From the NCBI GenBank assembly GCA_973895155.1, contig OZ316892.1:19727869-19791868 (forward strand): DNA of 64,000 nucleotides, given 5' to 3'. Origin of the DNA: Marsupella aquatica (Eukaryota; Plantae; Marchantiophyta). Position 1 is the first letter of the stretch; the number at the start of each line of letters is the position of its first letter. The position numbers and the translations under genes are program-made. Positions 25,811 to 55,350 of this stretch are shown here, piece by piece. The notes beneath the pieces are model-generated. The model had not been told where the DNA came from, did not search any database, and saw nothing but the letters and a program-made list of their open reading frames with translations.

Positions 25811-25820
25811 CAATAAATGG

Positions 25821-29018: not shown

Positions 29019-29019
29019 T

Positions 29020-32005: not shown

Positions 32006-33613
32006 CTACACGCGTCTCGTGCAAAAATCACTGTATTGCGGAGGAAAGCTCAATCTATTCCTGAATAGACTTAAAACGATTTCTCTCCTCTCCAAATCTA
32101 TGTCCTCTCCTGTGAAATCAAAAGGAAGGTCCAAACTACGGTAGTTCGCAAACTTCATAACGAACACACCACAATTATAGTAATCAGTTTGTCTTGGGAT
32201 GTCCTTGGGACTATGTTTTGGCCATAGAGTAGCTAAGACTTGCTTGTGACTTCTGCTTTGAATTTCATCCTCGACATATCTGGCTAAGTTTTCAAGAACC
32301 TCTGGCCTATTGTTATGCAGAGAATCAAGATATTCTAAATGCTTGTGTTCCATGTCAATCACAACTAACGCCCAATGATCGCCACCTTTGTGAATGGGGA
32401 CGAATATTCGATGACAATCAATTAAGAAATATTTCAGTCGTGAAGTCCAAGCCTCCACGGATCGGTAAGAGTAGCCATTCAACGTCAGTGCAGTATAGAA
32501 CCAAGTGTCAAACACATGGCACTTTAGAAGCTCCCTGTCGGAATGTTTATTCCTCTCCACTATGAGACTTAAGTAGGCATTTAGAATATCAGAACTTATC
32601 CAATTTCTAGGACTCAGGCACCTCATCTGTCCACGAGTTATTAGGCACCCATTAGTCATGACTAGAACCGCATCCTGATCCAACAGATCACTGAGGCAAT
32701 TGTCAATCCTCGTTTTGTTATCCATTGGATCCGGAGACGGGAGAGGACATTTGTTTATGTTTAGAAATTTATGACTTGAGACAAGAGAGAGGGAATTGGC
32801 ACATGCCTCATTGGTTGCCTCTGCACGATTGACTCGCCTCTCTGACACCTCAGGAAGATTCGCTGTGAGAGAAAATGAGTTATCATTCTCTCCTGTTACT
32901 TCAGCGCTACGAGAGTCAACATTGTCATCGCATTGAAATTCAATCGGAGTGTGATCTTTTTCCACAATCCCAACCTCCTCCACAACAATCTCTTTTAAGG
33001 GTCCACAATCCACCACCCCCTTCTCGACATCCTCGAGTGTAGTTTTTGCCTCACAATCATCAAAAACTGGGCCACTTCGAAGAACTAAAGCATCAACCAG
33101 AAGAGATTGCTCAACACCTCTGTTGCACTCTAACCCTGGAGGGTCAAACGAATTTTGAGGATCTACACGATACGTGTGTAGGGAGACATCATCCACAACA
33201 TCTTCCAAAGTTTTGTTGAACGCAATCAACCCCGTGCCCGCCTGTAAGTTTTCAGAATTATCTGCCAAACCATAACCTCCTTCAGCCATTAGAAGAGGAA
33301 ATCCTTCACGACTTGCAATTGGAACGACTGATGGACCAATTCTCATCTCCCCAATGGAACTTAGAAACTTTTCCTCCGCTTTCACCCCGACGTAATGTAA
33401 AACTGTACCGGCAATCTGATATTGCTGGCCCTCTTTTGCTCCACTAGCATTGGAGTTCTGAGTCGAACTCCCTTCAAGGCCAGGAGGTTTCCACAATGAT
33501 TTGGCGAATTGTGCAACTGGAACTAACAATTTAAGATTCTCTGCATAAGCCGTGAGGTCACAGACATCCTCACGGTCAGAGCAGAATGAAAAACACTCAC
33601 GCTCAAGCATCAA
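32006..33613 (-). CDS. Ulp1/C48 SUMO-protease domain preceded by an acidic linker (outer element cargo)
   Basis: WISSDILNAYL, FDTWFY, FVPIHKGGDHWALVVID, YLDSL, PRQTDYYNCGVF. Catalytic His, Asp, Gln and Cys are present. Confidence 0.9.
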   Translation of the reverse strand: MMLERECFSFCSDREDVCDLTAYAENLKLLVPVAQFAKSLWKPPGLEGSSTQNSNASGAKEGQQYQIAGTVLHYVGVKAEEKFLSSIGEMRIGPSVVPIASREGFPLLMAEGGYGLADNSENLQAGTGLIAFNKTLEDVVDDVSLHTYRVDPQNSFDPPGLECNRGVEQSLLVDALVLRSGPVFDDCEAKTTLEDVEKGVVDCGPLKEIVVEEVGIVEKDHTPIEFQCDDNVDSRSAEVTGENDNSFSLTANLPEVSERRVNRAEATNEACANSLSLVSSHKFLNINKCPLPSPDPMDNKTRIDNCLSDLLDQDAVLVMTNGCLITRGQMRCLSPRNWISSDILNAYLSLIVERNKHSDRELLKCHVFDTWFYTALTLNGYSYRSVEAWTSRLKYFLIDCHRIFVPIHKGGDHWALVVIDMEHKHLEYLDSLHNNRPEVLENLARYVEDEIQSRSHKQVLATLWPKHSPKDIPRQTDYYNCGVFVMKFANYRSLDLPFDFTGEDIDLERREIVLSLFRNRLSFPPQYSDFCTRRV

Positions 33614-34300
33614 TGCATTCTTTGGTACCTGCCCTCCTATGAAAAAATCCAGGACAATTTCCTCCCTCGAAGAAAATGCATGAATAAAACTCTACAGGAT
33701 GCGACTGGGCTTAATATTCAATGTGAATGGCCGTCCAGTTGTCAATTTGAAAGGAACAAGGCCTTCAAGTCGTGAGATCAATGTGTCCCTTTTTTTCTCC
33801 TGCATATCTTCCTTCAAAATATCAGAATAATCCTCTCGACTTGGCTTGATTGTCTCCTCCAGGTCGGACTCCTCCAACACAAAGTGACCGGTAAAATCCT
33901 TGAAATGCTTTTCCCAATCAGGAACCCGATCTTGGGAGACGCCAAGGAAAAGAACCATGTCCGCATTGCCTCTCATGTGTTGCAAAGGAGCATTAACCAA
34001 ATAACTCATGAACGAACCATATTCAAGGTGCGCATTATAGTTCTCCGGGAGATCTCGAATAGCTTCAATTATTCTTGCAAGAATAATACCAGGACAAACA
34101 AAAAAAACAGCTGTTACCAGATCATTTGTTGGGATATTCACGACGATCTTCAAGAAGTTCAAGATTTCGGACTGCGTCCAAACCGGTTTTCCAGTATGGG
34201 TCAAATCAACAATCGCTAGAGATGCCAATATTGACTCGCAACTAGCCGAATCAAAAGGAGGATCAGCAGATGCGAGCAGATTTCCAGTATAGAATATTCA
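33560..34300 (-). pseudogene. Degenerate beta-class N6/N4 DNA methyltransferase-like domain (outer element cargo)
   Basis: Reading through in-frame stops at 34298 and 33692 gives IFYTGNLL...SLAIVDLTH...KPSRIL*SFIHAFSSREEIVLDFFIGG...ALMLERECFSF, which resembles KP..L...I..FS..GD.VLDPF.G.G....A..LGR. Confidence 0.55.
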
Positions 34301-35044
34301 GTAAGGATCCATCCTTGCGCGGAGATGGACGCCAAACCTCTTTTGATGAATATTTCTCAACCTATTTTTCAGTGGCTCCGGCATCTCTGCTTTTAATGAC
34401 ACCTTCACAAGGCTCTTGAAATATCCAGTGTCCACCATTGCACAACAACGATCCAATTCCTCATCTGTGAAATTATATTGCTGAACTACATCACCCCAAG
34501 TTGATCCTTGCGAGAAAACCCCTTCGTACTTCTCCCGATAAAATTGAAGTATTGCCCCCTTAAGTTTGTCAGTATACTTTGCTTGTCTTGCCAATTCTGA
34601 CATGGCGGGAAGATCAGTCAAAGCATGTTTCTTTTTCATCAAAAGCGCCTCCCCCAAATTCAGTTTGTGGAGGATTTCCAAGATGTTGGATTCTACGGCA
34701 CCCTCAAAAACCCGGAATGTTGTCCCTGTCAACTGTTTTGCTTCTTTCAATTTTCCAATCATTTGTCCGGTTGAATCCAAAAGATTACCCTTGAGCCAAT
34801 TATTGCAAACCTCTCTCCATAAAGAGTAGAGCTTCTCGGGAGCAAACAAAATCCAATTGTACTCGCTGATGCTATTCACCTTTAACGTAACTTTCGCAAG
34901 TGTTTCATACTCCTGGGAGGAAAGACCAAACAACTCAAAGTTAGTCAGCTCAAAGTTTTGAATCCCAAAATACTGGAAAGGCTCTACACGACTCTCGCGT
35001 AGAAAGGAGAGAAGGACAAAGTGTCTGAATTTTGTTCACAACTC

Positions 35045-35600
35045 TCATGGAGAACCAACCTGAAATTCTGGAGATTTCCGACCCGATGGAAGTGGACGAG
35101 CTGGTCGCCCCATATCATTGTATTGCATTCTTGCATGTTTCACTTGGTCAATAAATGGAGATGAAAACCGATGTGCCTCCGCCTGAAGGTGGTTCGCGTG
35201 TGAAATTTCCACAAGAACTTTCACCGGAGTTGACCCTTTGAGAATTTGCGCTCGACGATATTTGAGCAAATTGGCTGTTTGCATGAGAGATGGTTGGGTC
35301 TTTGAACTCCGGATAATTTTCTTGGCGGCCATTGTGGAATGTTGACCACTGATGGCAAAGAACTTGAATTCCGCAAGCTTCTTGGTGTCAATATCCTTTC
35401 CCGCAAGGTCAATTAAACTCGGTACTCCGTCGATCATCTTGTAAGGAACCAAATCTGCAGGTAAAGGTTCTTGCCCTGCATTTGTCATCATCAGTTGCGC
35501 AAGATGGTTGACATGCTCCTCATTGAGGAGTCTCTCATTCATCTTTGCAGGAGGGGGATGGATGTTTTCAACCGGGACAATAAAAAAATTTGGATATCCC
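35045..35600 (-). pseudogene. ParB/sulfiredoxin-like domain (outer element cargo)
   Basis: ERLLNEEHVNHLAQLM...PADLVP...FFAISGQHSTMAAKKI...YRRAQIL matches the ParB/Srx pattern (R...V..L..S...I.DG.HR..A). Confidence 0.6.
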
Positions 35601-38568
35601 GAAACAATACCAAGACTTATTCAACTCCAATGTTTTTTCTGCAGTCTCCAGACGAGCACGGTCGACAACTAGCTTCGCGGAACTAGGGTTCTCGTCAATA
35701 TCCACATCTTCCTTATTTTTCTTTGCTTTCTTGGGCTTGCGAACGACAGCTTGAGAGGTGATGACAACCTTCTTCTCAACGTTTGGGGCCTTCTTCTCCA
35801 CGGCTCTGACCATGGGAGTTTTCACAACAATTTCAGCCGACTCTGTGGTCATCCCTTTCGCTTAGGAGGCTTTGCCCTTGATTCCACAACTACTGATTCA
35901 ACATCAAATTTTGCTTTTTTCTTTCCCTTTGGTGAAGGATCTTTTACAACTCCCTTTCGCTTCAGCGTCCTGATCTCCGGTTCGACCTTTTCAACTTTCT
36001 TCTTGACCGACGCAGATTTCTGTCCAACCCAAGACTTTTGAGACGGTTTCTCCTCCTGAGGTTTTGCTGGTGAAGCGACTTTCTTTGCATTGCTTGATTT
36101 TTGTATTCTGTCCTCGATCCCTTGCACTTCCTCGACAACTTGAATTCTCTTTTGAGAAGATGTTGCCTTTTCTTGTTTATCAACCGGAGATACATTTTTT
36201 CCACCTTTCACTTGAGGCACGACTTCGCGCTGGTTAGAAACAAGAACTCTCTTTCGAGATGGTTTCTTGTCTTCTTTTTGTTCTTCCCGTTGAACCTTCT
36301 TGCGGCCTGTTTTTGCCGCAGGCGGCTCATCTGCTTGATCAACAACTTTCACTCTCTTCCGAGGTAGTTTAGCTTCTTCTTTTATTTTCTCAAAATCAAC
36401 CTTCTTCCGGCCTAGTTTCCCTGATGGTGATTTTTCGTCCATTGCTTTTTTCTTCCCACTGGGTGTGGATGACTCTGACACAACACCAGCTTTCCCCTTC
36501 CTGGGCGAAACTCCCTTTGAAGTCTTTGCGTATCGCTTCTCTGTTGGAGGCTTTGCTGGGGGGATGACCTCATTTTGTTGAATTTCCCCACTCTTGACAT
36601 CATCGTTAATTGGTTCAACTCCACCTTCTAAACTTGTTGACTCTGACTCATTCTCTGACCCCGCCCGATTCTGAAAAGTCTTCTTGCTCTCTTCTTGGAC
36701 ACTTCCCTCCTCTCCGTCATCCTCATTTTTGGACTCATAGACTGATATCGTTTCATGGGACTTGCTCTCTCCAGAGGCGGACGAGTCATCGTTGGAGGAG
36801 TCATCCTCGTCCTTTCCCTCCCCATCATCATTGTCAATCTCTTTTCCACCAACATCTTTCTTCTTTGGGCGTACCAAGTCTTGGATTATTGGATGCCCTC
36901 GAATCCATTCCTCCACCTTTGTCTCACTGAAGTGTTTCATGAACACAACATTTGGAGAAATAGTCATCTTTCTCCTCCAGTCATCGTCTGGGATCTTCAT
37001 CCGCATTATTTGATCCACCTCTCGTGTCCGAGAGATAAAATATTCCGACTGCTTCATGACATAGGAGACCCGTCCAAGCCCCATAATTATTTCATCAGCC
37101 GTAAAGACCCGATCAGGTGAGAGCCATCTATCCGCCAAAGGATCAAAGAAACCGCATGAGACAACATTTGTGTCCTGGTTGTAAGGTTCAAGACAATGTG
37201 CTGAGCAAAACCCATGAAGTGGAGCAACCATCTGCTTGAAATTCCAAGCACTCTCAGACTCCAATGTCAGCAAAAGAGATGGGTTGTCCTTTGGGGACGC
37301 AAATCTTGTACAGTCTGCAAGAGTGCCAAAACTCACAAAGTTTCTTCGTCCATTTTCTGTTTTAACTCCCCTCACAATCAAACGGTAGTTGCCTTTGACT
37401 GGTTGCAATTCAAAAGACCATGAATTCACAGTCGCCAAAATATTCTCAAGTTTTGCGACCGTTGGAGTTTCAATCCGAAGCCTGTCAAAACGGAAATAAA
37501 CAGAGCAAACTCCTAGAAGACAAGGAGAAATATGTCAAACATCTGCACGACACTCGCGTAGAAAATAAAGTGAGCTGACAAACTGTTGCTTCATTATAAA
37601 CAAAATGATGTGAAAACATCCTTTACAAAATGGCCTCTTTGGCGTGTAAATGGTCCGGCAAAAAATGACTATCAGAACTTTGGAGATAGTCTTATGAGCC
37701 ATTTGAGCTCATCATGATTCGGAGTCAAAACAATGTCTAGATTTAAGAAACAATCCAATCCTCTGGAAACATAAGAGTTCCCTAACTCAAAGTATGCGCA
37801 CACATGTGGCCATGAAGGCAACAATTTTTCTTTTCCAATTCAATCCATCGCACTTTGGTATCCAATTGTCTTTCCCTCTCTTGGCCATCAGCCAGCTCCT
37901 GTCGCAAGTCATGAACTTGACGATCTTGAAACTTCTCCATCTCAAGAGAAGCTTTCATGGACTTTGCCGCTACGTCGCAAGTAATCAAATGCTGGATCTG
38001 TGCCCATCGATACTTTGCAAACATCTGCTCCCGTTTGTATTCCATTGCTTCCTTTTCATCCTCCAACGCTTTTTGGAGAATGGAATTCTCCATCAAACTC
38101 ATATCAAATGCATAAATACTTTTTTGTAACAATCCCTCAATCTTCTCAAAATTGTCCTTGCGATGAGCGCCTTCCTCTAGAAAAGTTGAACGAACAAAGT
38201 TACATGAACAATGTTTTGATTCCATATGGTACATATGAACGAGGATTCTACACGACAGTCGCATAGAAAACATGAGTTTCTACACGACAGTCGCGTCGAA
38301 ATCCATTATCTCCAAGATTGGAGAATCGGTTCTACGCGAGACTCGCGTAGAACTAAACAGGAAATTCTAAATTTTGACATAACGGCTCTCAAATAGAGAC
38401 TATGGGTCGATGAAAGAGACCCATTCTACACGACTCTCGTGTAGAGTAGACTCAAGTTTACCACAATCCATTGAAAATAGAGAAATTTAGGTCAGAATTA
38501 CCTTTGAGCTTCCTCAATGCAGCGAGAGCAAGTAATCCGGCGTCATTTTCTGCCAAAGAAGTCGTCAT
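35568..38568 (-). pseudogene. N-terminal exons of the outer cargo gene (coiled coil, globular region, long K/E/D low-complexity linker)
   Basis: Putative ATG at 38568. The GT-AG intron from ~38501 to ~38178 joins in frame to the coiled-coil ORF 37782-38273. An acceptor near 37481 leads into the 529-aa ORF. Frameshift near 35850. Confidence 0.5.
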
Positions 38569-39390
38569 TCCCTTCGCACGTGCGAACTCCTCCATGATAA
38601 TGTCAAGGACCGACTAGTTGAGCGAAAACAAATAGAAAACACAAATGATCCAAGGTCCGAGGTCCTTTTATACTCCAAGACGAGCATGAAAGAGCGTATC
38701 GTCCGAGGGGAGCGTGAAAGAGCATATCGTCCGAAGCGAGCGTGAAATGGCGTGAAACAATCTGAGGGCCAAGCGTGAGAGAGAGAGAGCGTGAGAGAAA
38801 GAGAGAGCAAGAGAGAAAGAGAGAGAGCAAGAGAGAAAGAGAGAGCAAGAGAGAAAGAGAGAGAGAGCGTGATTGAGAGAGTTAGACAATGAGAGTGACA
38901 GCGAGCTGGTCGGAAAGCAACATATATCGGCCCCTTCCGCGTGGAATACTGTCAAACAATGATTGCGGTTGCTACCCGGCCGCCAAACCTGATACTCGGG
39001 ACGTGTCACTAACATGGCGAACCACCACCCACCGCCAAACCAATCTGCATTTATGGAAATGACTGCTCACCACACACCACGCCGCCACAAAAAAGTACTA
39101 CACGACAATCTGGTAGAGTTGAATGTCTGAAATTCTTGCACCCCCACTCACTATATAACATGACAGACCACTTTGTGCAAGTCATTTTTTGAGACCTGAC
39201 TCATTTGTGCCTTCAGTCCGAGGTGGGACTGTCGTTAAAGCGTGCTCAGTTGTTTCAGGTACTGCATTGGTACAGTTTCTCGTACAGTTTTTCTCCTGTC
39301 ATTTTCAATTTTGTTTTAGTGATTGTGTCAGTATGTGAATGCATGTGCTTGAGTCTTTCCCATTGGGATGTGGTTTAACTGTATATTTAG

Positions 39391-40095
39391 TAGTAATCTC
39401 TATTGAATTTTGGACTTTTGATTTGCTACACGAGTCTAGTGTTGTTCCCCTGGTCTATCTAAATACAACATTCAATACAAAGTTCCTCAGATAACAAGAA
39501 TACTCATTTCAGAATATCCATCTCTCTATAGAAGTTTTAAGAGCCTACGAGTGTGTATTCAGTAGTAATCTCTATTGAATTTTGGACTTTTGATTGTCTA
39601 CACGAGCCTCGTGTTGTTCCCTTCGTCTATGCAAATACAACGTTCAATAGGAAGTTCCTATAAGAAGAATACTCATTTCAAAATATTCATCTCTATATAG
39701 AAGGTTTAAGAGCCTACTAGTTTGGATTCAGTCGTAAACTGTATTGAATATAGGACTTTGGATTGTCTACACGAGCCTCGTGTACGTTGTTCCCCTCGTC
39801 TATCCAAATACAACGTTCAATAGAAAGTTCCTCTAAGAAGAATACTCATTTCAAAATATGCATATCTGTATAGAAGGTTTAAGAGCCTACTAGTGTGGAT
39901 TCAGTCGTAATCTCTATTGAATATTGGAGTTTTGGTTGTCTACACAAGTCTCATGTTGTTCCCCTCGTCTAAGATACAATAGAATTTTCTATTTAATGAA
40001 AGAACCTTCAACTTTGTCGATGATTGTCTCCATTGCTTGTTCTGTGATATTTGCTTAGATTAGAGTTAGAGATTTTCACATGAGCCTCGTGTAGG
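39391..40095. repeat. ~172-bp tandem repeat (about 3.5 copies), each unit carrying the outer-element palindrome
   Basis: Units start at ~39391, 39564, 39733 and 39905 (TAGTAATCTCTATTGAATTTTGGACTTTTG...CTACACGAGCCTCGTGT). Confidence 0.85.
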
Positions 40096-40143
40096 CTGTT
40101 TTAAAAGATGTTTTTGTTGCAAATATTTTTCCTCAGATCCAAA

Positions 40144-41160
40144 ATGGCTTCAAGAACGCAGCTTCTACCTGGAGAAGTCGTTCACCTGCTTATCAATGAA
40201 CAACCAGTTGCTGGTGGAAAGGTTTTTTGTGTTCTACCTTCCGACACCTGCCACTCTGTGTTGCTTGGAGCAAAACGGATAAGTGTGGCGGTGGACAATG
40301 CTTTCTTTCACCTTGAACAGCTGCCGTATCCACATGCTGGAGCTGATCTAGTAGGAGAGTCGGTGAACTCCATTGTTTTGTGGGATCGGCAAGATGTCCG
40401 CCATGCAAATGACATGAATCTTGGAGGTCAAATAGAGTCAGCTTATGTCATTGATGACCCAGTTGACAATATTCAAGGTAATTCTGAATCAGCCATCGGA
40501 CTGGAGGGGACATAGGTTTTTGCGGAGGATTTGAAAGATCGTAGCACATGGTTCAAGAAGTTTGCCCTTCTCTATGCGGACGACGGAGAAACCTTGCTCG
40601 CAAGAGGTTGCATCATAAACCCACATCCTCTCGCGTCCATTAACAACGAGCGAGTTGGGGAAGATCATGTTGGTGTGAATATTTTGAGTCTAGCTATTGA
40701 AGCTGGCTTGGGAAAAGTTCTGTTCCCTCAATTTGTTGACAGATCACCATGCACAGTTTGATGGCCAATCAACAAAACTAGGATTGAGCCTAGAATGGAA
40801 TGTCTGAGTGATCTTTTAGATTGGAATGATGGTAACGATGAGGGAGTTAGAATTCTCTCATATATCAAGCCAAAAAGGGGCTATAACAATCAACGAAGAA
40901 ATCCTCAATCTTGATTCAAACAAGAAGGAGAGAAAACAACTCGAGAAAAGACGCAATCAAAAGATGTCTCGAGTGTCCATAGATACTCTTTATCGGGTTG
41001 ATTGTTGCTCACAGAGTTGTTGTCGACGACAACTCCGTGAGACCGTCACTGACATTAGGGCCCGCATTAGGGAAGAGTACTATGGTCTATCTCATGTTGA
41101 GCAACATACTTACATGCTCAATCATCTTCACTGTCGTGACGATGAAACCATCGCCTCAGG
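40144..41160 (+). pseudogene. 5' part of the outer transposase (two Tnp1/DUF8039-like repeats, then a Cys cluster)
   Basis: MASRTQLLPGEVVHLLINEQPVAGGKV...LPYP...IVLWD, a second similar repeat, then DCCSQSCC...EEYYGLSHVEQHTYML. In-frame stops at 40513 and 40759, plus a frameshift. Cut at the TSD. Confidence 0.65.
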
Positions 41161-41642
41161 GGGTATAACCACCGTGCTAGCAAATAGTAAATAGATATTC
41201 TCATACGAGCCAATTTTGCCTCGTACAAGAAATTTTTTGTCTCGTACGAGTAAACAAGTTCCTCGTATGAGCATATCTATTTACTCGTACGAGTTTCTGT
41301 TTTCTTGTATGAGTTTCTATTTTCTTGTATGAGTATTTTTTTTTCTTGTATGCATTTTAGTTTCTTCTCTTCACGGTATGTAGCGTCCATATATGCAATA
41401 ATTGTGTGGACAATATTATGGTGGGTCCCACCATTGTACAACATTAGAGGAAATTTCTCAACGATTTCACACAAGGACTCCAATATATTGCCACAAAATA
41501 TGAAGTCGAAACAAAGTCATACAATACTAGCGCCCGACGCTAGTATAGTATTATACAAAAAAACAACACTTTAAGAACTCACACTTCTGCCCATTAGAAA
41601 AGACAAACTACAATTGTAGCTGTTCAACGATCAAGCAACAGT

Positions 41643-44600
41643 CTACGTTCTCGTTCCCAACTGCCTATCAAGTATGTAACGGACTTCTCCCAACGTTAGA
41701 ATTGGCTGGCTACATAATGTTGATTCGAGCACATCCAGTTTGAACACATTCTTGAACACCCAATACACATGTTTGCAAGGCATGTAAGGCTTCCGATAAG
41801 TATGTCGACGGTAGAAATCCTCGCAAGAGCAACATGGGAAACAACATATATGAACCCAATAAGAGGCGACTGATCTCTCATGTTCATGGGTCCGGATACA
41901 AAATTGTTTCCCTGACGCATTTCCACTCGTGATCACTCTCTCTCCAATGACGCTCATCACTTCTTTTTCAGAGGCTTCAATTCTCTTCAAATGTGTTTGG
42001 GTAAGATGCACTCTTTGCAAGCATTTTTTCCCGTTCCTTGAAGCGTACCTCACAGATGGGTCAGTTAGGTTTATCCTCTCCAGGAAAAGATTGACATCAA
42101 TCTGTAACGCAGAAGGCAACGGTGCTTCGATTTCATCTCCACAGCCTTCGGAGAGAATAAGTCCTTGTTCTTTCAAAAATTGAATCTCTGCTCCAAAAAG
42201 ATTGGTCCCTTTGGCAATTGGGAGATGTGAAGGAACATTGGGAATGTTCGAGACTCCTCTCCTTGTTGTGCTTCGGTGACAGTGGTTGTTGGGGCAAAAC
42301 CATATCTGATCGTTATAAGGTTGCCCCTAAACATTCTACATCCTCTCACGGAAATTGCAACAACACCATCTGGATTCGGAAGACCAACCTTCTTTACTCG
42401 ATTTTGACATTCATCACGACTACCTCCCCGTCCAAGGGTTCTGTTACACACTGGACCCGCACCCCGTTTTGAGGTCCGACGCAACTGCCAGGCACCGGGA
42501 GGTACTTCACTTTCCATTGGGGAAACTGAATGACAATATGCAGTCTCGACAGGTGTTGCAGGCGTCACTGGTGGGACAGAGGATCTCGTTGCTCGACGCG
42601 TAGGTGTGTCAATGACCACAACTTCCTCAGAAGCATCGCTTTCTGACAAATTATGGACCGCATCAATTCCACCGGCTGAAGGCGTAGAAGGCATTTTCTC
42701 AAAATCAGTGGAATGCAGGTTTCTCCTTTTCAAACCTTTTGTATTTGGTGAAGTAACAAGGATGGTATCATGCCTGTGCGAGTCTTCTGCCGAGACGTTC
42801 CCAGTTGCATGTCCTTTTCGTTTCACCGATTGAGTTACAACATCACCATTCAATGGAACGCTTCTTTCCAAATCAAACTCAGCAGCGTTCGACAGGAGGA
42901 GATTGGTGGCTTCCTCAAAGAGACGCGGTGACCCCGCCAGGTCCGCCGATCTGAAGGCAAGCTCAAAAATAGTTGGGCCAGTTCCTTTGCTCAATCCCCT
43001 TTTGTATGCAGTATAAGCAGCAATTTGAGCAACCGCTCTATTTTGGTCCGTTTTACATCCTTCAAATAGACCAACCTTTTTTTTTCTGTTGCCATGCTTT
43101 CATTCCAGCATGCCTAGATTCCGAACCAGTACAATTAGGAATCATCCCAGCCTCTTCGGCACTCTTGCTTTGAAACGTTGCACGCAAGGGTTTAGTACAT
43201 GTAAGAAATTGCACACAAAAGTGGCAACACAATGGAAATAACAGTAGCGCCAGACGCTAATAAACTGATGATGATATTTCCATGTAAAGAACCGTTTAAC
43301 ACAGAATAAAGGTAGTCCTTACATCACTCATAGTCCAAATGGATTATTAGCGCTCGGCGCTACTATTGCAGATAAGGAACCCTTCTATCTCACACATGCT
43401 TCACTAGCGCCGAGCGCTATTAATGGGAACATGCATCCTATAGAAGTGTATAACTCACCAGTCTTATGAAGTTCCCCCATTGTCTCCATCGGACAACCCA
43501 CCAAGACAGCCACCCTTGCAGCATCCGAAGTTTGCCTGAGTGACAATTGCCAGACCTCCACCAGTCATCGATTTCCCTAGAGATTCGATATGCTTTCAAG
43601 AAAGTTGGCGCGTTCTGAAGACGATCCCACATCTCCTTGTGCTCTCCGTGCTTTCCATCTTTTACACCTTCTCGGGAATGACAATGAAAAGATTGGAAAA
43701 AATGAAAGGCATCTGATCTTTCTCGCTCTGGGTCGGGTACACCGTCAAAGAACACGTTTTGAACAGCATTCCAACCAGCCTGAGCATTGTCCGCCATGAA
43801 TCCCCAAATTGTAACATCCTGTAAACCATTTTCATCGGCAACCTCTAACATCAAACGCCAGGCTCTCTCCAGAGATTTTGCATCTTTGGCCTTTAGCTCA
43901 CAAGTGAATATGGTGCAAAGTGCCCGGTAATGATGATCATATACATGGGCACTGAAAGTAAGCCAATCTGCCGTGCTTCGATGCATCACGTCAAAACTTA
44001 CCCATGAACCCTCTAACGACCCACCAGGTTTCATTCTTTGGAGCAGGTCCAGACCACTACCGTCATCTTTTACGGTCATTTTAAAGATATGAGCACTCTC
44101 ATCCCGATAGCCTTGACCAGGGAGCAAGAACCTATGAAGAAAAGGTAGTCGGATACACTTTTGCATCCTCACAAGAAATTCCAGTTCCCCTTTCCCCTTC
44201 TGATCTTGACGGACACTCCTTAACACGGATGCAAACTTCTGAGGAGATGCGACGACCATCAGGGACTCCCAGATTTCCTTCTCTTCTTCAAGAGAGATTT
44301 CTTCAACAGAGGCCTCGCAAAATGTATTCGTCAGTGTCTCAGTCGTAGAGTTTTTAATCCCTGCTTGGGATGCCATGGGGTTTGCAGTGAATCCCTTCTC
44401 CAGATGAGACTTTGCAACCTTTTCTGCCTCCCTCAAAAAGACCCGTCGACTGGGATGATTGTGAAATCCCATAAGAACAGCTAGTCGCGACATGTGGGCC
44501 AAAGACTTAACGTCAACTTTTGCAGATGGATACATGTAGAACATTAGAGCAGGGCAGGCCTCAACGCACATCAGAGGTTCGGAGCAATGGTGACAAACAA

Positions 44601-45498
44601 CTCCACCTTCGAAGATCAATTCCCCAACTCGGAATGGGCCCGAAAGTTTTGGGGTTCTTGCCCACATCTCATTATTTCGAAAGTTGTTGTCTTTCCACCA
44701 CGGACAAGCATTATTTTGACACTGCAGCGATCCCGTACACTGGACTTTCCCGAAATCCCACATTTTCTTCGGAAGAACATTTGAAGACGTTTTCACAATC
44801 CGAGTCCAATAATAACAATCCTTACCACGATCCATATCTTTCAAACGTTCACCTTTTGCGTTCACACAGTCTACCGGGGGTAACTCAAAAACCACATTCC
44901 CATTGTAAGATGTGGGAAGACTAGGCACTACGTGATGAACAAAATCACTCCCCCTTATAAACCGAGACAATTCACTATGACCTTTGGATTTCAAGATTGT
45001 ATCCATTGCACTCTGCCGGTACACAGTCAAAGGCACAATCATTTCTCGATCCGCATTAGACTCCTTTTTAACCTCGGATGGGTAAACTGGAATCTTCTCT
45101 CCGAGAGTAGTTGTCGCTTGCTTATCATCTCCAGAACTTTCCGAGAGTTTGATGACATCGAGTTCAGCCACTGTGGGAGGACGAGTATAGGAGGCCCCAG
45201 AATCTCTCAAAACAAAAACCTCATATTCTTTCTGAGCCTCCAGAGTCCAATATCTTAGACCATGAACAACATCGTAGAAAAGTGGAGTCTCCCCCAAACA
45301 AACCGACACTAACGGCGAGATCGCTAAAATAGACTCCTTGGCGACATCAAATCTCACTCCCAAATATTCCTCTAAAACACGCTTTGATTCAGATGATTCG
45401 AGGACGGGAATTGTGATTACATCCAGAGTGTCCTTCCTTGTGACAACGATATTTTGAGCCATGGCTTCAAAAGAGGGATATGCATTTGCCCCACGCAA
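41643..45498 (-). pseudogene. MULE-type transposase: GCM/WRKY-like Zn domain, DDE core, C-terminal SWIM finger; spliced and frameshifted
   Basis: CTGSLQCQNNACP...CHHC...GFHNHP; WVSFDVMH (D1), FMADNAQ (D2), DAFH at the CxxH position. After an intron (~43455-43175) comes CTGSESRHA (E). SWIM: CSCEDF...PCKHVYWV. Confidence 0.8.
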
Positions 45499-46184
45499 AA
45501 TGAAATATGTTTATCATGAGATTCGAGTACGAGAAGTAAACGTTCCATTCTCATTATAGAGTCGTTATAGATTGGACGCACTCCATCAATGACGTTTTGT
45601 CGTCTTACCAACGGCAGGATTCGGGTTCATAGTTACTAGCACCTGGCGCTACCTCTATGTGTAAAACACCCTTGGATGAGGACTACGAATGCCAATAATA
45701 ATAGCGTCTGGCGCTACCTCTGGGTGCAAACATTCTTGGGTGAGGAGTACGAAGGCAATAAATAATAGCGCCTGGCGCTACCTATTTCAATGGACTTGAA
45801 AACATTCAATGGAAGGATAAGTACGACAACGCAATACAGTACGAGTCATTAAGTTGGCACGCTTTAAGATCTCCACTGGATCTTCGCGAATCCGATCCGT
45901 CCGGGTCCAAATGTGCCAGAGAGGAAGCGTCCACGAAAGTTATATCAGAGGGTCCTCTTCGAAGTGGGCAGCCAGGACCAAGTGCAAACTCTCCTTATAT
46001 CTAGTCGTTCTCCTCCGATGTCCTCATTGTCAAGCCATTCTTTACTGAGTCGCAGTTGTGGCTCATCTTTCGGGCGCGTGGTTCCCGTTCTCGCATTCGG
46101 GCCCAGTTGTTCTTTTTGGCTTTCGTGCGCGTTCTTGTTCTCCTTCTCGTCCTCGTTTCTCATTCTCGTCCTAGTTCACTTTCA

Positions 46185-49100
46185 ATGGCACCTCCACAGG
46201 GAAAGGCAAAGGAGGAGGCACTTGTCCCGAGTGACACCGACCGGGAGACCCCCGCATCAAATAGCTTACCGCCTCGGGACGAGAGGATGACGGTTCCAAT
46301 CTCGAAGAAGGGGAAACTCATCTCAAAGACGAAGAATGCCCCAACTATGGGACGCAGCAAAGGATCCAGTCGGCCAAATGCGAGCGGCCCAACTTCTGTT
46401 CCCGCTAGGGATATCGCCCATGCTTCAGTCGGCCGTCCAAGAGCCGACACTATCTGCACGGGAGTCTCCGTATCTTCTTCATCCACTGAGAGTGATCGTT
46501 CTTCGAGCGGGGACTCATCACCGAGCAGGCAAGGATTTGCGTGGTATGGATCGAGCGACTCGAATGACGACTCTGATGCGTACAAGCCAAGTTGGTGGGA
46601 AGACTGATTTCCCGGTGTCAGAGCGTCTCGTTTGAGTGCTGGAGAGACTTGGAGGATCCATCGAGGTTGATAGGATCTAATTCCACTCGTTTTTTTCCGT
46701 TACAAAACACATACCGTTCCTTCCTCGTATGTCGGATTTCTAGTGTATTGTAACATTTTGTATATGAACGGCACAGCCGTTCATTTTTACCCCGGTGTCA
46801 ATGCTTTTGAATTCAGAAGACCAAGCTTTAATTTTGGGTTCTACTCCCGTGTTTGCATTGTATTTCTGAATGCGAAACTGATCTATTTCTTTGAAATGGC
46901 CATAAACACTCGTTTGCTGTCAATGTTTTTACTAGCGTTTGGCGCTATTATGACAAACAAAGTGTCCATAACACTGTCGTGACATTTCTTATCTCTAAAG
47001 TGTTTTTGATAGCGTTGGGCGCTACTAATGAAAGGAATCACAAGTCAGACCCGTTTGGAGTTATTTTTACTTTTATTTCAACAAAGTCTGTTCAATTGAT
47101 GTGCATTTTAATAGCGCCAGGCGCTATTGTAATTCATTGGAATATTCGTTGAATGAATGGGTTCATGTGGTCATGTTTGTTGTCATTGGACTCCTATTTC
47201 ATCATTTATTTGGATACTAGCGCCAAGCGCTACTAAAGTTGGCTTGTTGACTCCTGCACAAAATTGGAAAATTTATAGACACTTGTGTTGATAGTACTGT
47301 CCGAAGCTACATTAAGACGGTTTTTCAGATACATTTGAAAGTATGTTGTATAATAGCGCCTGGCGCTATCCACAACTATCGACATTGATGTGGTTCCAAC
47401 GGTCACTTTCCAACGGTAATATTATAGTAGATTGAGGTTCACGGAACCCTTTTTGCTTTTGTCTGGGATGAAAGTCCAATCGGAGAATGCCATCTGTACT
47501 TGGGATTGTTGTAATCGAATGGCTGGTTCCAATGTATCGGTGTCTTAATACGAGGTGGAGATCGCTCGTTTGGGATAATTTAGTCCGTCTACGCGCTCAG
47601 ACCTTGGACTATATGAGTTTGTCAAGTGCATATGTGCGTCCTTTATTGGTCCCGTACATTTTGAGACGTGATCGTGACAAGAACTGCACGGCGCGTCCGG
47701 CAGTGCCTTTGGTCGAGTCGCTCTCCATGGCAACTTTTGGCTGGGTGATACGAGAATGGGGGAGGCTGATGGTGGTCATTTTGAGTCCTCTCAGTCTTCG
47801 TTCGCTGGTTCAGTATACACCCGTCGTGTCACTCGATCGACTGCATCCCTGTCGACTTCCGAAGCTGAATCTGCACAGCCCTTCCCGAGGTCGAGGAGAG
47901 GGAGAATGGACCCTAAGGACGTCTCCATGGGTGAAGTCAGTGACATAGGCTTATCGATAGACGAGGTAATATCAAAGCACGCATTGTCGTTCGGGAAGGA
48001 TTTTTGAGGATTCGATAAGGAGCCACCTCGAATTCCTCTTTGTAGATTGCTCCCCATGGAGGTTGTTCGAACCTTACAGAAAGAAAGTGCATCGATCGAG
48101 AAGTTGAAAGAATCATTCCGTGTCACCGGGTACAACTCGCGCATTGGGATGCCTTTCTACGTTCAGCCTGCGAATGCCGATGGGGTTTCTCAGATATGCA
48201 CCAGCAAGATCCGGGACTCTTGGGATCCAATTTGGGTCGTAGAAAATGACAAGTTTGAGGAAGAGTGTGATGCGGACCCAACATTCCATATTCTAAAAGA
48301 TAAAATGTTTTGTGTGTTTGACAGAAATCATCGATTGTACTCATGGTCAATCCTCACGAGGGAGAATCCGAACAACTTGAAGTATCATCCTCGTGTGATT
48401 TGCGTCATTTTCAATGGTGACAGAGGTTCGCTAGTTGAGCTCGAGGCGGCAATGCACACCATGAACCAATAAGTTCTATTTGTTAACTGTTGTTACCCCT
48501 GTCATTCATTTTGGACCAAACATGCTTTGCGAAAGTGTTCATTCCCCAATTTTTGCTAGCGCCGAGTGCTACTAATTCCTTTTCATTGCATCCAGGCTTG
48601 GACAAGCAGTCGTCGAGCCTTCCTGGATTCTTGACGCGGACAGAATTTCCCGAATTTTGTCGCGTGATCTTGATCACTATAAGCCACTCATCGACAGCGT
48701 GAACATGGCAAAGTTTGAGGCGATCCGAAAGAAGACGAGAAAGGGGTCTTGGTTTACACATAAAATGCCACAGGATGCTCTCATCTACATTCTGTGTGTG
48801 GACAAAATCAAGTCTTACTCAAATCAATTTAAGTCTGATATGGCTTTAGCCAAAGCTCAAGGGGCTTCTTGGTCAGAAAAGGAGACCACAAAGAGGCATG
48901 AGGCAATGATGAAGGAGGCGACCAAAGATTGGTCGATCAAAGTGACGAAGATCACCCCTTTACTTCATCCGGATTTTGGAGATTATTTGGGAACCTATGC
49001 TGAGATGTATCCCGTAACTGAGAAGAACAAACAGGAGAAGAAGCCAGACACAGTTGTATGCACAATGGATCGAGCCAGGTTGTTTACTGCTGTTTCATAC

Positions 49101-51497
49101 CTGGATCCAAAATTGAGGTGCACCCTTCTAGTAGCCCACTGCACTCCCGAGATTTGGAAACAGTTTTTCCATCCTGCAAGTGTCAACGACGAGCCTGTGA
49201 AGCAGTGGTGCCATACATGGCATACTTGGAATTCTGTGGAGGGAATTGCAACTGGAATGCTTCACACTTCTTTCAAACAGATTTCTGACCGGATGCCGGC
49301 TGACCGTCTCACAAAGTCTGGGTGTGAGTCAATGGAGGCCATGCTTAAGATCATTCTAGATGAATTCAGAAACTTTGGGGATCTTGTCAAGGCAAAATTC
49401 TTCAACAACTTGTGGCCTTCCAAATATGCGGACAAGGAAGATTACACAGAGCGGAACCGGAAGAGAGCCAAACGATATCTATACCGGTTTTACATGTGGA
49501 TGGAGCTTAGATCTCCTGACACTCTGTGGGCATACCCGGCTGCATTTCAGAAATGGGTGTCTATCGAAGAGGGAGACGCTCTTGCCGACCTGTATTCGAT
49601 GTACCCAGCGGAGGGAAAGTTTCCACCACGTTCATTGTCGGAGTGGGAGAGACTTTGTTGTCCGTGGTACCTCGACACAGACAAATGGGATTTACCGTTT
49701 GACGAAGCTGAGAAGGATGCCTTCATGAAGTTGCAGAAGTCCCAGATCCCTGCCAACTATGTGTCTGCAATGAAGCAAGGTCTCCAGTCTGATGTTGACG
49801 AATCTGCATCTGAGTTACAGAAGAATTGTGAGTCTCTTGTCATGCACGTTGACCGAAGCCGTAAGCCAAGAGCAAAGGCGAAGAATGAGTCGGCTGCACC
49901 AAGTGACTCCACAAGGTCCTTCAAGAAAAGTGAGTAGTCTAAGCGCTTTTTGGTTACTTGTTGGCGTTGCTTATGCAGGAGTTTCATTTGGAAATTCCTT
50001 TGATTAATAGCGCCTGGCGCTAGTCTGAAAGGTTGGACTCATTCAAGTTTCTGTGCCTAACAGGAGGTCCCGGCTGCCGAAGGGAAGAATGATGCAACTC
50101 CTCAGGCATCGGAGGCAAACACTGGAGCTCAAGAAACCCCGGATCAAGGGACCCCGGATGGTGCTGGCAAATCCATTGTCCCTCTTGACGCAACTAGCAC
50201 GAAGAAAAATAAAAAGAGAGGCGCCGGTGAGGATAGAGCAGCATCATCTACTCGAGACGTTATTTCCTGTGGACTCCAGAGAGATGTCGGGAATTTTAAG
50301 CGAAGGTGTTCTAGACACTGTTTTGTGGAGTCCAATTTAAACGAATTTTACGATTCGGTATTTAACAAGGGGATGAAGCCCATGTGGGTTACTAAAGTTG
50401 AGGCCTGGGGAAAGGAATTGGTAAAGTCAGGAGACAGAGAGAAGGGAGTAATGCATGGCGGAAAAGAGAGGGGCTTTGGTGTGGATGCTGGTTTCATCTA
50501 CATTCCCACTGGATTAAAACCAACACTTCTTGATCGGAAGATTCCCAAGTGGAACCTTCAGGATTACACTATTCCCAGCTCTTTCTTCCGAGCCATGGAG
50601 CCGTTCCTTGCAGACGATGGCCTACTTGCAATTTTACACAGAGGAGACTATGATCAGGTATCTGAAGTGATTGCGGCTTGCCAGGATTCTAAGTGTTTCC
50701 AGTGTATTTCAACCCACCATGTGGTCATGACTACACCAATGTATAGGCCCCGATCTGATACTCAGGTAACAATTCCTCTTGCACATACTAGCGCCCGGCG
50801 CTACTATCAGCATTCGCAATATCTACAATTCACTTATCTTTCGTAAGGATGAATGGTTGACTAGCGCCAAGCGCTAATATATGTGTATGTTTTCGTATAC
50901 TGCCTTCATTGGGAAACTGTGTTGCAGATATTCACACTTACTCTTAATATATTTTGCCGCATTTTGACAAAGGGAAGGGTCCCGAAAGACCCCAAGTTCC
51001 GGCCACTATCGAATGAAGAAGACCCTTCCGTCACTAACATTATTGGGTTTTCGTTGCCGCAACATGACCCGACTCCTGAGCTCCAATTTGCAGGAAATTC
51101 ACGATTGCCTGTGGGTTTCATGCAAACTATTTTGGAATTGGTGACTCTTCCTGGAGATATCGTTATGGACTGGACAGTAGGTTCCGGTAGTACGTTTGTG
51201 GCTGGAGATTATTCTGGTCGCTTTGTTGTTGGGCTGGAAAATCGGCCAGAGTTTGTTGATACTTCCGGTAAGGTCTTCCTTGATCTTTTACAGAACAAAG
51301 AAGTGGTTGCACCAACTCCTCCTAAGAAGATTCCTGGAAGTAAGAAGCAGGACAGGCTCCGTGCTATTCTAAATTTTGATTCGGAAGACGAGAATGAGGG
51401 TGGCAATGCTTCTCAGCAATCTAAAGATGATGAGGTGTCGAAGAATGTGGTGGACCTTGGATCTGGAGATGAGGACAGTGAAGAGTCAGAAGAGTAA
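46185..51497 (+). pseudogene. Spliced ParB/Srx-like plus beta-class N6/N4 DNA methyltransferase fusion gene (MULE cargo)
   Basis: ParB-like IPLCRLLPMEVVR...IEKLKESF...CVFDRNHRLYSW (48020-48470). MTase-like VDAGFIYIPTG...FLADDGLLAILH, then LPVGFMQTILELVTLPGDIVMDWTVGSGSTFVAGDYSGRFVVGLE. Introns at ~46670-47430, ~48470-48594, ~49931-50062 and 50766-50927. Stops at 46605 and 48005. Confidence 0.75.
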
Positions 51498-52271
51498 TTT
51501 TCTTTAGCTTTCTTTCTCTCATTGTATACTTTTTTCCAAAAAACTCCTCTACTCCCTTTTGTCTAGAAAATTCGCCCGATTTCCCGACTTCGACTAAAGA
51601 ACTCCAGTTCAAATTCTCAGGTCAGAGTAGAATCTTTGGAGGCGTTTTCAACTTTGAAGGAACGTCTCTAGGAACGTTGTACAGACCCCGGAGAAGCCAT
51701 TTGTTCTCCCCTCTTATGCTGAAAAGGCGGCACGACGGGCAGATTCAGTCAGGACGCTTACTTGGGAGAGTAAGGGTCTTAGACTCAGGAGAGGCTCAGA
51801 TAGAAAGTTTGTGCAGAATCACTTCATAGATGATATTGCAAAATCCAAGTATGTGGACGACGAAGCAGAGTCCACTGATAGATCAGAAAGTAGCGGTTCT
51901 GAATCGGGCTCAGAGTCGAGTGGTGGTTGTGGATCTGGTCTTTAGTTTTCCTTGTTTTATTTACCCGTTTATGGAGAACGACAACACTCAATAAGAACGT
52001 CGTGACGTGTCGGATTGGAGTAGCGCCCGACGCTATTACTGTAGCCGGTAGTTCAAAGAGGTTTTTATTTGGTTGTTTTCCTTATAGCGCCCGGCACTAG
52101 TATAAATGTACTCAATGGCCGCTTCACATCCAATATATGTGACAATATTTTCATACCCTTTGGTGTCTTTTTTGGGTGCACATTTGCTGGTATGAGTTTT
52201 GCTGTTTGCTGTTTACTGTTTGTTGTTTGTTGTTTGCTATTTGCTGTCACGGAGAGATCCCCCGCCTCAGG

Positions 52272-54576
52272 CATGATTGTATTCAAGGGAAGCAAGATCT
52301 GCAAGGAAGCTTTCTGGAATATTAATGGATTTTCTCTAGGAACATTTTACACAATGTATTCACGATACATGGAGGGGGCAAAAGTTGGTGTTCATGGGAA
52401 TGAAGGGACCATCAAGACCAAAGACTACGTTGTGTTGTTCACAGAATCAATTCAAAGTATCCTGCATAAATGTGCAGAACCAATGCCACATCTTCACAAA
52501 ATTGGTGTTTCAGGCAAGCAGGAAGTTGTTTTCAGGGTTCCAATAAGTTTCGGGAGAAAAGATGTTTTTGAAGAGGCTTGCAAGCTTAACAAAAACCTGG
52601 GTATTCACTCGACCTCTCTCCCAACCTTCTACAAGCTTTTGGATAAATATTTCCCCAATTTCCAATTCCAAGATCGGAGCAACTTTGCAAAATGCGATCT
52701 CTACACGACCATTAAAGAAACACTTCGGGGGGAGAAACGGGTGGATAAGATTTTAGAAATCAAGGCAAAGTGCGAACGGCATATGTTGGAACAACAATCA
52801 CGCAGGAGTATGTACTATGCAGCAAAAATTGCGGCGGACCAAGAGCCCAAAAAATATTTGTCTATGATTCACGATAAAATGGATCAGGCCAAGACCGGAA
52901 TCCCTAAAATGACTTCTACACTCAAGAGCCAAGGAGGCAAATCAATCCCGCTACCAATGACGCTGACGGGGATGTTAACGCATGGATGGGAGCCTGGAAT
53001 TTATGCACATTTTGCCCTTTCTGGTTTGTGGGCAAGCGATCCTGATTTTACAATCTCTTCGCTTGCAAAGTTATTTCGTGATCTCAAATCATTTGTGGGA
53101 GATAAGACCGACGATCTAGCTCTCAACACCTCTGACGTCATAGATCCAATCTTTGTATCCCTCTTGGATCGGCGTGCCTTTGAGGTAGGATACCTCGAAA
53201 CCAAAAAGATCTCTCTCGCTCACTTCGTAGGGCTTGGTGACTCACACGAGAGTCCCGTAGAGCCTTGAACATTGCTACCCTTCAAGGCGCTTCCTCGAAA
53301 CCTCCACCTTCAACTTGATAACTCGGGAAAGGATTACAAGAACCAGACATTTCTGGCTTTCTGTAGCGAGCTTGTTCTAAGAGGAGTGTTTGAGTCAGTA
53401 ACTCTTTCCTTTTTGATGGTGGGGCACACTCATGAGGATGTGGATGCCTTCTTCTCTAGAGTCGGGATAAGGATCTACAATTGAGAGCTTACCACATTTT
53501 TTGGTTTGATGGCGGAGGTTTGGGAGTGCGAGAAGAAACATCCGGTTCCAAGGTTCATCCGCGAAGTTGCATCTTACAAAGCTTATGTAGGACCATTTGT
53601 CAAAAGGATCCAGGGTCAATCAGCACCTGTTCAATTCTTGTTATCAATGAAGGAGAATGTCCCAGTCTACCAATATCGAGAGAAAATTGATACGCCTTGG
53701 CTACCGAAAAAGGGTCAAACAATTTGGTTGTTTGACTTAGAGAGAAACCAATACAAATTTCCAATTGGAAGTCCTTATTCCAAGCGGATGGAGTCTTCTC
53801 ACAAGCGAGCGAATCACATTTTGGAATACTTGATCCATTATATCTCATGGCTGAAGACTGCATGGAAGGATGTTACATCGGAGGGATATCGTCTCCGAAG
53901 TCCAGAGATTCAATACTGGGAAAACATTGTTTTTGTGTTTCAGGACACACTTTGCTCTCCTTCGCTAGCAGGGGTAGATTATCCATTACTTGATGGATTC
54001 TGGCCTCGAACGAACCATGGAACTGGGTATCGTCAGGATGGTCAGAACGTGGATACCAACCCAAGCGAAGACAATGGGGTGATGCATAATCTGGAAAGAG
54101 AGCTTCAAGAAGATGAAGAAGAGAGGCAAACAATCTTTGTCTGACACCCTTCTGAGCGTGAGAGGTCAAGATTTAGTCCTCTAGAAGATATTAAAAAGAA
54201 TACATTTGTTATTATTCGACCCACCGATGAATTTGAAACCAGAATTCTGCAACGATTTTGGCTTGCAAAAGCAATCGATTGTGTCGTAAGAGATCCCGAC
54301 GATTCGCATGTTGGAGAGTTCCAAGTTGAATGGTGGCGCCCTCTTAATCGCAAGAGTTTGGCAACCGAATCAGAAAGATATTGGGACTACTTTAATTCAA
54401 AGCAAACGTGGGAAAGGGATCCCAATTACCTCATTCCCCCAGTCACAAATGATTGGATCCTAGCAACTTCAACCATCACCGGATGGACATCAAAAGCAAA
54501 AGCAAAGGTAAAAGTTCCAGCAAGAGTTTTGGAAAGTGTGAAGGTTTACATTACAGAAACGATTGAAGAGAACTAA
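52272..54576 (+). pseudogene. 3' part of the outer transposase (Sola1/DUF7869-like RNase H-fold DDD core and C-terminal beta domain)
   Basis: ICKEAFWNING...HGNEG...FAKCD...MIHDKMDQAKTGIP...LHLQLDNSGKDYKN...SFLMVGHTHEDVDAFFS. In-frame stops at 53266 and 54142; frameshift near 53480. Confidence 0.75.
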
Positions 54577-54620
54577 AATCCTTTCTCGACGCAAGACTCG
54601 CGTGGAAGACACTTGGTGAT

Positions 54621-55350
54621 GCACGGCACGTCCTAATTATGTCGGGTTCAGGATTGTGGGAGAACAATAGGCGAGGTTTGAGCTGGTGTCACTTTCCGCA
54701 TGAGGCTCGTGTAGGCCGGATTACTTAGCTCGAGGATCATTTTTTGGAAAGTGAAAGGTGTGTACTTGTACTCAATGTCATATTCACTACAATGGCGCGC
54801 ATGTCAACCTTTGGCTCGTGTCCATTGTGGCCACAATGATGGTTTGGTGCCGGATCACAAGATTTGGGTGGGATGAGCTCAATTTCCTCCGTTATTGAGG
54901 TTAAATTGACAGGTGCTTTTTTATCATAATTGTGCTACACGAGGCTCGCGTAGGATGTCATAATCAACTTATGACTTGCAAAACCCGGATCTTATCACAG
55001 ACACCCATATCACACGGCATGTACTAATTGTCGGGTTGAGGACTGTGGGAGAACAATAGGCGAGGTTGGAGTTGGTTGGTTCCATTCACTTTCCGCACGA
55101 GGCTCGTGTAGGCCAAACTACTCAGCTCTAGGATCATTATGACCTTCGGAAAGTGAAAGGTGTGTACTTGTACTGAATGTCACTTTCACTGCAATGATGC
55201 GCATGTCGACCTATGGCTCGGGTCCATTGTGGCCACAATGATGGTGTGGTGTCGGGTCACGGGTTTTAGTATCATAATTGTACCATACGTGGCTGGCGTA
55301 GGATGTCATAATGAACTTATGACTTGCAAATCCCGGATCTCATCACACAT
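54621..55350. repeat. Two-copy tandem duplication (~390 and ~340 bp) near the presumed right end of the outer element
   Basis: CACGGCAYGT.CTAATT..GTCGGGTT...CCCGGATCT.ATCACA starts at ~54621 and ~55012. Each copy holds two palindromes. Confidence 0.8.

Follow-up and report, generated by a model that had tools for sequence, protein, structure and literature searches.

A 19-bp palindrome specific to a decayed giant transposon of the liverwort Marsupella aquatica and its predicted pairing with a ParB-like/methyltransferase-fold cargo protein

ParB-like accessory proteins have been described in transposons of brown and red algae. The 21.5-kb Sola-type transposon Sola1-1_Ec32 of Ectocarpus carries an opposite-strand accessory gene that combines a ParB-like domain with an N4C/N6A methyltransferase, and self-binding and self-modification have been proposed for it (PMC12477816). 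Sola elements are marked by terminal inverted repeats and a 4-bp (AWWT) target-site duplication, as quoted in PMC3845634. In red algae (Bostrychia and others), Plavaka elements of the EnSpm type harbor a PAG2/PAG3 cassette with a ParB-like protein and inverted repeats as its proposed sites, and this cassette moves between superfamilies, including Mutator (bioRxiv 10.1101/2025.02.11.637652). The VANDAL/VANC elements of Arabidopsis contain family-specific, partly tandem motifs in non-coding regions that differ between related elements (PMC5735166). Additionally, Marchantia MpDN4MT1 and rotifer N4CMT are active host methyltransferases with a TSPPY/SPPY motif (bioRxiv 2021.02.12.428880). In the present study, we analyzed a 64,000-nucleotide stretch of Marsupella aquatica (contig OZ316892.1, positions 19,727,869 to 19,791,868; hereafter the window), in which a 19-bp palindrome is dispersed through a giant transposon (the outer element) that is interrupted by a nested Mutator-like element (MULE) with a palindrome of its own. 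Our best reading is that each palindrome forms a private pair with a protein encoded by the same element, the binding being predicted.

The 19-bp palindrome is a real, element-specific system in a decayed giant transposon. An earlier note, made from the letters of the window, had listed 18 copies, and the motif was present at all 18 positions: 16 copies, two of them exact, have at most three mismatches, and those at 39098 and 55283 have four each. A search of the window allowing three mismatches returned 17 matches, whereas the shuffles averaged 0.02 with a largest value of 1, and none of 100 reached 17. Two copies that the earlier list did not include, at 33163 (three mismatches) and 53242 (four mismatches), both in coding linkers, bring the total to 20; a site at 56065 is doubtful, with five mismatches and 9.2 bits, within the shuffle range of 8-15 bits. 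Scored with a symmetric weight matrix that was trained on 19 of these same 20 copies, the outer copies reach 14.6-29.9 bits. The motif is not comparably dense in other DNA: the maxima are 8.0 bits in the nested MULE, where the earlier note had also seen no copies, 6.5 bits in positions 1-30500 and 13.7 bits beyond 56200. It is absent from about 49 kb of other window DNA, in which host genes and other repeats lie. When the outer DNA was searched de novo for palindromes, the same motif was recovered (score 63, shuffles at most 15). Because positions 9 and 11 are mixed (28 G and 8 C among 38), CTACRCGASNSTCGYGTAG fits better as the form of the motif. Other family copies read G at 32024 and A at 38297, nearer the consensus than the window itself (from 40 of 1064 variant rows).

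The copies are partly non-independent. Those at 39426, 39598, 39767 and 39940 lie within a tandem array of ~171-bp units, and the pairs 54696/55093 and 54935/55283 lie within a ~390-bp duplication; thus, the 20 copies represent 15 independent contexts, and their flanks are mostly unrelated (median identity 30%). That eight of the 20 copies fall in two local duplications lends something to the view that the palindromes arose neutrally, through local duplication or from tiny inserted elements, as does the observation that the motif in the 3' duplication is not visibly better preserved than its flanks. However, the 15 contexts with unrelated flanks extend across 23 kb and avoid exons, and the MULE shows the same pattern independently; we regard the neutral explanation as very improbable.

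The earlier note had placed the copies mostly in introns, the divergent promoter and the 3' flank, and this distribution was borne out: based on exon models made in this analysis, 17 of the 20 copies are non-coding, against a non-coding share of 28% for the whole element (p=2e-7), and so are 12 of the 15 independent contexts (p=5e-5). The coding exceptions comprise two copies in variable linkers and one that overlaps a stop codon, and the copies are densest in the divergent promoter. Such non-coding, promoter-dense placement would also be expected if the palindromes were sites of host transcription factors, captured for germline expression, and the CACGAG half-sites may resemble known plant factor cores. 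Nevertheless, the motif is missing from the rest of the window, host genes included, and the palindrome differs from one element family to the next, which makes host-factor sites quite improbable.

The variation between the two arms bears on what recognizes the palindrome. Departures from the consensus in the outer arms are one-sided in 32 cases and two-sided in 6, arm pairing does not exceed that of permuted arms (101 vs 99, P=0.26), and the departures in the inner palindrome of the MULE are 16 one-sided and none two-sided; the arms therefore show no covariation. Independently varying arms fit what would be expected of a protein-dimer site rather than an RNA stem, and from this together with the dyad symmetry we infer dimer binding across two helical turns. 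A role of RNA or single-strand hairpins in splicing or processing would agree with the many intronic copies and with a slight sense-strand excess of G.U over A.C (12 vs 8; 8 vs 6). Given that the arms lack covariation, that a 1-nt centre is unable to close a loop and that copies also occur in the promoter and 3' flank, hairpins are the least credible of these explanations and can be considered extremely unlikely.

The nested MULE contains a different palindrome, TAGCGCCNGGCGCTA (15-21 bp), with 18 copies between 41528 and 52085, which scored 100 in a de novo search of the inner DNA (shuffles at most 13); all 18 copies are non-coding (p=5e-9). The nested arrangement described in the earlier note is sound, as the outer transposase frame is continuous once the MULE is removed. 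The 9-bp target duplication and the lack of a long terminal inverted repeat are traits of a non-TIR MULE (one lacking such repeats); the MULE/SWIM identity was assigned by motif inspection, with no Pfam match. Whatever had inserted later would lack the outer motif, as the MULE does; what is informative is the high density of a separate motif in each of the two elements. The suggestion that both motifs share one design stands in part: each has a dyad, a 1-nt centre, a CG-rich sequence and a length of about two helical turns, but the ends differ, being CTA..TAG in the outer motif and TAG..CTA in the inner one. Each element also has a cargo gene of the ParB-like plus methyltransferase-fold plan, in accordance with the two cargo proteins that the earlier note had named, and in both the cargo lies on the strand opposite the transposase and is divergently transcribed. 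The inner cargo matches PF01555 (E=5e-8), its ParB-like exon falls into ESM Atlas ParB_N/DUF3723/DUF6551 clusters (0.92-0.95) of the same ParB_N/DUF3723 type as those of the outer family, and a (D/N/S/T)PP(Y/F/W) motif was found in none of its frames. Two side observations concern the MULE. A second copy of its left end, 95.6% identical and with the same starting base, occupies 63193-64000 and includes the inner palindrome once, at 63555. A third palindrome, CTCGTACGAG (10 bp), is present in seven copies, spaced by ~20 bp, at 41200-41333, at the MULE left end only; these are candidate transposase sites.

The outer cargo comprises, in order, an N-terminal domain of no known type, a Lys-rich linker, a ParB-like domain, a helical region, a beta-class amino-methyltransferase fold, an acidic linker and a Ulp1 protease. 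The window copy carries two frameshifts and two in-frame stops. Comparison with other family copies, which have 1-base indels at 35581 and 35850-1 relative to the window, identifies the frameshifts as such indels, and the stops at 34298 and 33692 showed no variant among 40 of the 1064 rows. Its 147-nt intron is removed exactly where intron-less homologs read through, and the Ulp1 protease follows in frame after one stop, with the His/Asp/Gln/Cys motifs present. The middle cargo exon has 44 relatives that extend into an N6/N4-methyltransferase-like end; in homologs P0044 and P0057 the ParB-like part is in the same frame as the methyltransferase-like part, PF01555 was found in three homologs, and the named relatives are liverwort proteins (Riccia sorocarpa, Calypogeia fissa). 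The P0057 model, with a predicted local distance difference test (pLDDT) score mostly >80 over 224-755, with dips, matched beta-class amino-methyltransferases (Foldseek E=2e-5) and CcrM (Z=15.8, root-mean-square deviation 4.4, 213 aligned), and by this model the outer cargo holds that fold. The single-sequence model of P0044 (pLDDT 34) was unused, and PDB and NCBIfam matches above E=0.03 were treated as chance. The catalytic (D/N/S/T)PP(Y/F/W) motif occurred in none of 52 stored outer-cargo homolog sequences, many of them partial, and all 12 homologs caught by the catalytic-strand pattern read DF[AST]; the strand was assigned from the aligned ranges of the P0057 model, using a presumed CcrM residue numbering. 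The catalytic motif thus appears to be lost in the outer cargo family. At the GxxRxxA CTP-box position, in a poorly modelled region, four of four outer-family sequences read SG(Q/A)HS and the inner cargo reads DRNHR, so the CTP-box arginine does not appear intact in the outer family. We consider the ParB call for the cargo moderate.

We propose that the 19-bp palindrome is the binding site of the outer element's own ParB-like/methyltransferase-fold protein, which would bind as a dimer spanning two helical turns and keep the promoter and introns of the element open against host silencing. Lacking the (D/N/S/T)PP(Y/F/W) motif, the methyltransferase fold may act as a reader or shield of CG sites rather than as a writer, while the Ulp1 domain of the outer protein would locally strip the small ubiquitin-like modifier (SUMO) from silencing factors. 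The nested MULE would be a parallel system with its own palindrome, binding specificity having diverged between the families. It fits this proposal that two unrelated transposase types appear with the same cargo architecture and that copies are densest in the divergent promoter, and the separate short subterminal repeats at the outer left end are also counted in its favor, as are the parallels in print (PMC12477816, bioRxiv 10.1101/2025.02.11.637652, PMC5735166). We hold this joint proposal, for both cargo proteins, with slightly better than even confidence.

Several results weigh against it. Direct comparison of the outer and inner cargo proteins revealed no significant sequence similarity, and the window cargo contains a single DPPF, 15 residues ahead of where the catalytic strand is expected. 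For the ParB-like region, the PHROG match is sub-threshold (E=0.034), the ESM Atlas feature scores of 0.91-0.96 come from clusters in which ParB families are assigned to a minority of members, and Pfam and PDB gave no match; when the ParB exon was used for word-based searches of homologs, 0 and 1 protein came back. Model confidence is low in this region, and because it stayed unmodelled, the missing ParB fold match carries no meaning. A helix-turn-helix (HTH) was not identified. Furthermore, the right end of the outer element was not located and lies at or beyond ~56100, and that the cargo and the transposase belong to the same mobile unit is suggested by a single locus and the shared motif. 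No cargo match was found in 60 related transposase loci, most of them short contigs, although one (L014) has 9 kb upstream. Finally, 11 of the 17 closest of these loci have upstream DNA, and a repeated palindrome stands there in five (L003, L004, L005, L006 and L014), beyond all 100 shuffles and with three different sequences.

These five arrays, directly upstream of related transposases and with no cargo detected, favor the alternative that the transposase itself binds the palindromes through its N-terminal DUF8039 repeats. The family-specific sequences are TTGGCCATATGGCCAA (L006:527-1833), GCTCAAAC..GTTTGAGC (L002-L005) and AATCTAGC..GCTAGATT (L012, L014). The remaining six loci, most of them short, lack a repeated palindrome; in L002 and L012 the same motifs occur once or twice, which is not above shuffles. 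A transposase homolog also weakly matches the TNP1/EN/SPM domain (E=0.097), and Spm TnpA and the AtMu1 transposase activate their own copies, an activity of which bioRxiv 2026.08.24.746577 gives a report. Nonetheless, the MULE transposase is quite different and still has a dispersed palindrome of the same kind, the TnpA sites in the available part of that report are terminal and non-palindromic, and other short repeats fill the outer left subterminal region and the MULE left end. The palindromes of the relatives, moreover, have even spacers and form arrays, rather than dispersed odd-centred sites. Binding by the transposase is therefore unlikely in our judgment, though it deserves serious weight. 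Separately, a 16-bp palindrome, GGTGTTTATAAACACC, absent from the window, lies shortly past the transposase stop in five of the 60 loci (L003:4429, L006:5170, L007:4029, L008:3620/3664 and L010:2128).

Compared with the described systems, the proposed pairing of palindrome and cargo protein is a new land-plant variant of the design proposed in algae; it is functionally akin to VANDAL/VANC, not a member. Ulp1 cargo occurs in VANDAL-like MULEs. Like VANDAL/VANC, the outer element has an accessory protein and a motif specific to its family, which is partly tandem and lies mainly in non-coding DNA. However, VANC motifs are 8-9 bp and non-palindromic, VANC binding is proven whereas that of the outer and inner cargo is predicted, and the outer transposase is of the DUF7869 type, only the nested element being a MULE. 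A VANC-type domain had no Pfam match in 27 window open reading frames (ORFs), and the cargo has another fold. By description, Sola1-1_Ec32 resembles the outer element as a giant Sola-type element with an opposite-strand ParB-like/methyltransferase gene, the Sola type and the ParB-like domain of the outer element being putative. It differs in its brown-algal host and in its 282-bp terminal inverted repeat and 4-bp target-site duplication, neither of which was found in the outer element; the available part of its account mentions no palindromic sites and reports no Ulp1 (PMC12477816). Here, in contrast, the catalytic motif appears lost, and the cassette is also present in a MULE. Plavaka elements likewise combine a ParB-like accessory protein and inverted repeats with an N6-methyltransferase accessory gene, but their ParB is fused to a 2-oxoglutarate (2OG) oxygenase, the methyltransferase is on a separate SET protein, and the repeats, which occur in red algae, form tandem arrays next to the gene instead of being scattered through introns. 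MpDN4MT1 and N4CMT (PDB 8s9n), compared at the level of the fold, are eukaryotic beta-class amino-methyltransferases, one of them from a liverwort; these host enzymes have the catalytic motif, whereas the outer family is transposon cargo that appears to lack it.

The sites of bacterial ParB, parS, resemble the present motifs as dispersed two-turn palindromes. Bacterial ParB and phage ParB-methyltransferase fusions share with the cargo a beta-class methyltransferase fold and, in the cargo putatively, a ParB-like N-terminal domain (PMC4738411), but the CTP-box arginine appears not to be intact in the outer family, and no HTH was identified. A phage tblastn search gave no match, and the exact outer motif had 21 single matches in bacterial genomes, with no cluster in the 2-kb flanks, and none in viral contigs. 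A broader idea, which we rate as rather doubtful, is that land-plant transposons use a portable parS/ParB-like cassette whose protein loads at its own palindrome and spreads along the element; in it, an inactive amino-methyltransferase would serve as the reader and a SUMO protease as the effector. Such a cassette would lift silencing from its own family only and would have been swapped between Sola-like elements and MULEs with re-tuned specificity. A full-text literature search, with most subscription journals and Repbase outside its coverage, returned no land-plant report of such elements or palindromes. The nested pair with mutually exclusive palindromes makes the proposed self-recognition directly testable. 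If true, land plants would have, alongside VANC/TnpA, a second and independent means of sequence-specific anti-silencing, which is assembled from prokaryote-type parts and might be turned to programmable epigenetic targeting.

The host of the outer palindrome is a decayed multi-copy DNA transposon of the DUF8039+DUF7869 type, tentatively labelled Sola-like. Its transposase has seven homologs at 39-59% identity, the best of which (P0001) matches PF25273 (E=3e-40); the homolog profile matches eight collinear window segments from 40105 to 54573, and the core motifs HDKMDQ, QLDN and GHTHEDVD lie in DUF7869. Owing to its stops and frameshift, the window copy is dead. Contigs of three runs covered all 30 bins of 28000-38700, and since near-identical and ~10-15% diverged contigs overlap inside a single run, several family copies exist. 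In the NIF/FCP1-like gene, these contigs have 44 letters where the window has 13 (31311-31325). The left end was placed near 30535 because one family contig, the only one of its kind, starts at 30533 and extends through this gene to 31653. Terminal inverted repeats longer than 12 bp were not found between 29000-32100 and 54500-64000, and GAGCCCGGG at 30520 was rejected as the end of the element. A 10-bp inverted match joins 30533-30542 and 56260-56269, with AT on both sides; it may be chance, as a CACTA-type terminus begins at 56118. The small coiled-coil gene had no Pfam match. The features are listed in the table.

Table. Features of the outer element and the nested MULE (positions within the window)
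Feature	Positions	Strand	Details
Left end of outer element	30535..30860		Probable; subterminal repeats of the TTTCCAAA/TTGGAAA type, which differ from the 19-bp palindrome; repeat 7-mers concentrated
NIF/FCP1-like phosphatase-fold gene	30867..31900	-	PF03031 E=9e-13; broken here; start approximate
Outer cargo gene	32006..37480	-	Putative single ORF of ~1800 aa; transcribed away from transposase
Copy	32006..32024		Overlaps cargo stop codon
Copy	33163..33181		Coding linker before Ulp1
Cargo intron	34913..35059	-	147-nt GT-AG; contains copy 34984; in-frame splice KSPEFQ/EYETLAK
Copy	34984..35002		Intron of cargo gene
Copy	37543..37561		Directly upstream of first cargo exon (intron or spacer)
Small two-exon coiled-coil gene (putative)	37782..38595	-	From translation and splice sites; intron ~38182-38500 with four palindrome copies
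Four-copy cluster	38248..38444		38248, 38280, 38332, 38426
Divergent promoter / transposase 5' intron	39098..40094		Copies 39098, 39426, 39598, 39767, 39940, 40076
Transposase gene	40144..54576	+	DUF8039 repeats and DUF7869 DDD core; interrupted by MULE at 41160/52272; several stops and one frameshift
Nested non-TIR MULE	41161..52262		11,102 bp; 9-bp target duplication CGCCTCAGG at 41152-41160 and 52263-52271
Inner cargo gene	46185..51497	+	ParB-like exon 48008-48470, helical region, N6/N4-methyltransferase-fold C-terminus
Weak copy	53242..53260		Variable loop of transposase
Transposase 3' flank	54587..55301		Copies 54587, 54696, 54935, 55093, 55283
Small broken ORF	55521..56001	+	Probably still within outer element

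The surrounding DNA holds further mobile elements. At 29874-30532, a 119-bp unit with perfect 44-bp inverted arms precedes a primer site of the Met-tRNA type and an internal sequence of ~540 bp; with 81-162 contigs per run ending loosely at 29874, this is a very abundant small long terminal repeat (LTR)-type element, and it has apparently been cut off by the outer transposon. The region 56118-~60600 begins with a CACTAGAAGAAAA terminus and contains CCACTA-rich repeats and four ~705-bp tandem units (57140-60043); it is probably a CACTA element, the other end of which was not found. A Copia-type LTR retrotransposon at 23008-29313 has identical 294-bp LTRs and is therefore a recent insertion. Additionally, a tandem array of ~59-bp units with the palindrome GCGATAC.NN.GTATCGC occupies 13574-14260, between 32-bp inverted repeats (13433/14583). 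The host-type genes of the window are an intronless FAD/gulonolactone-oxidase-like ORF (19921-21927), a kelch F-box gene (1037-2275) and a Skp1-like fragment (10586-11146).

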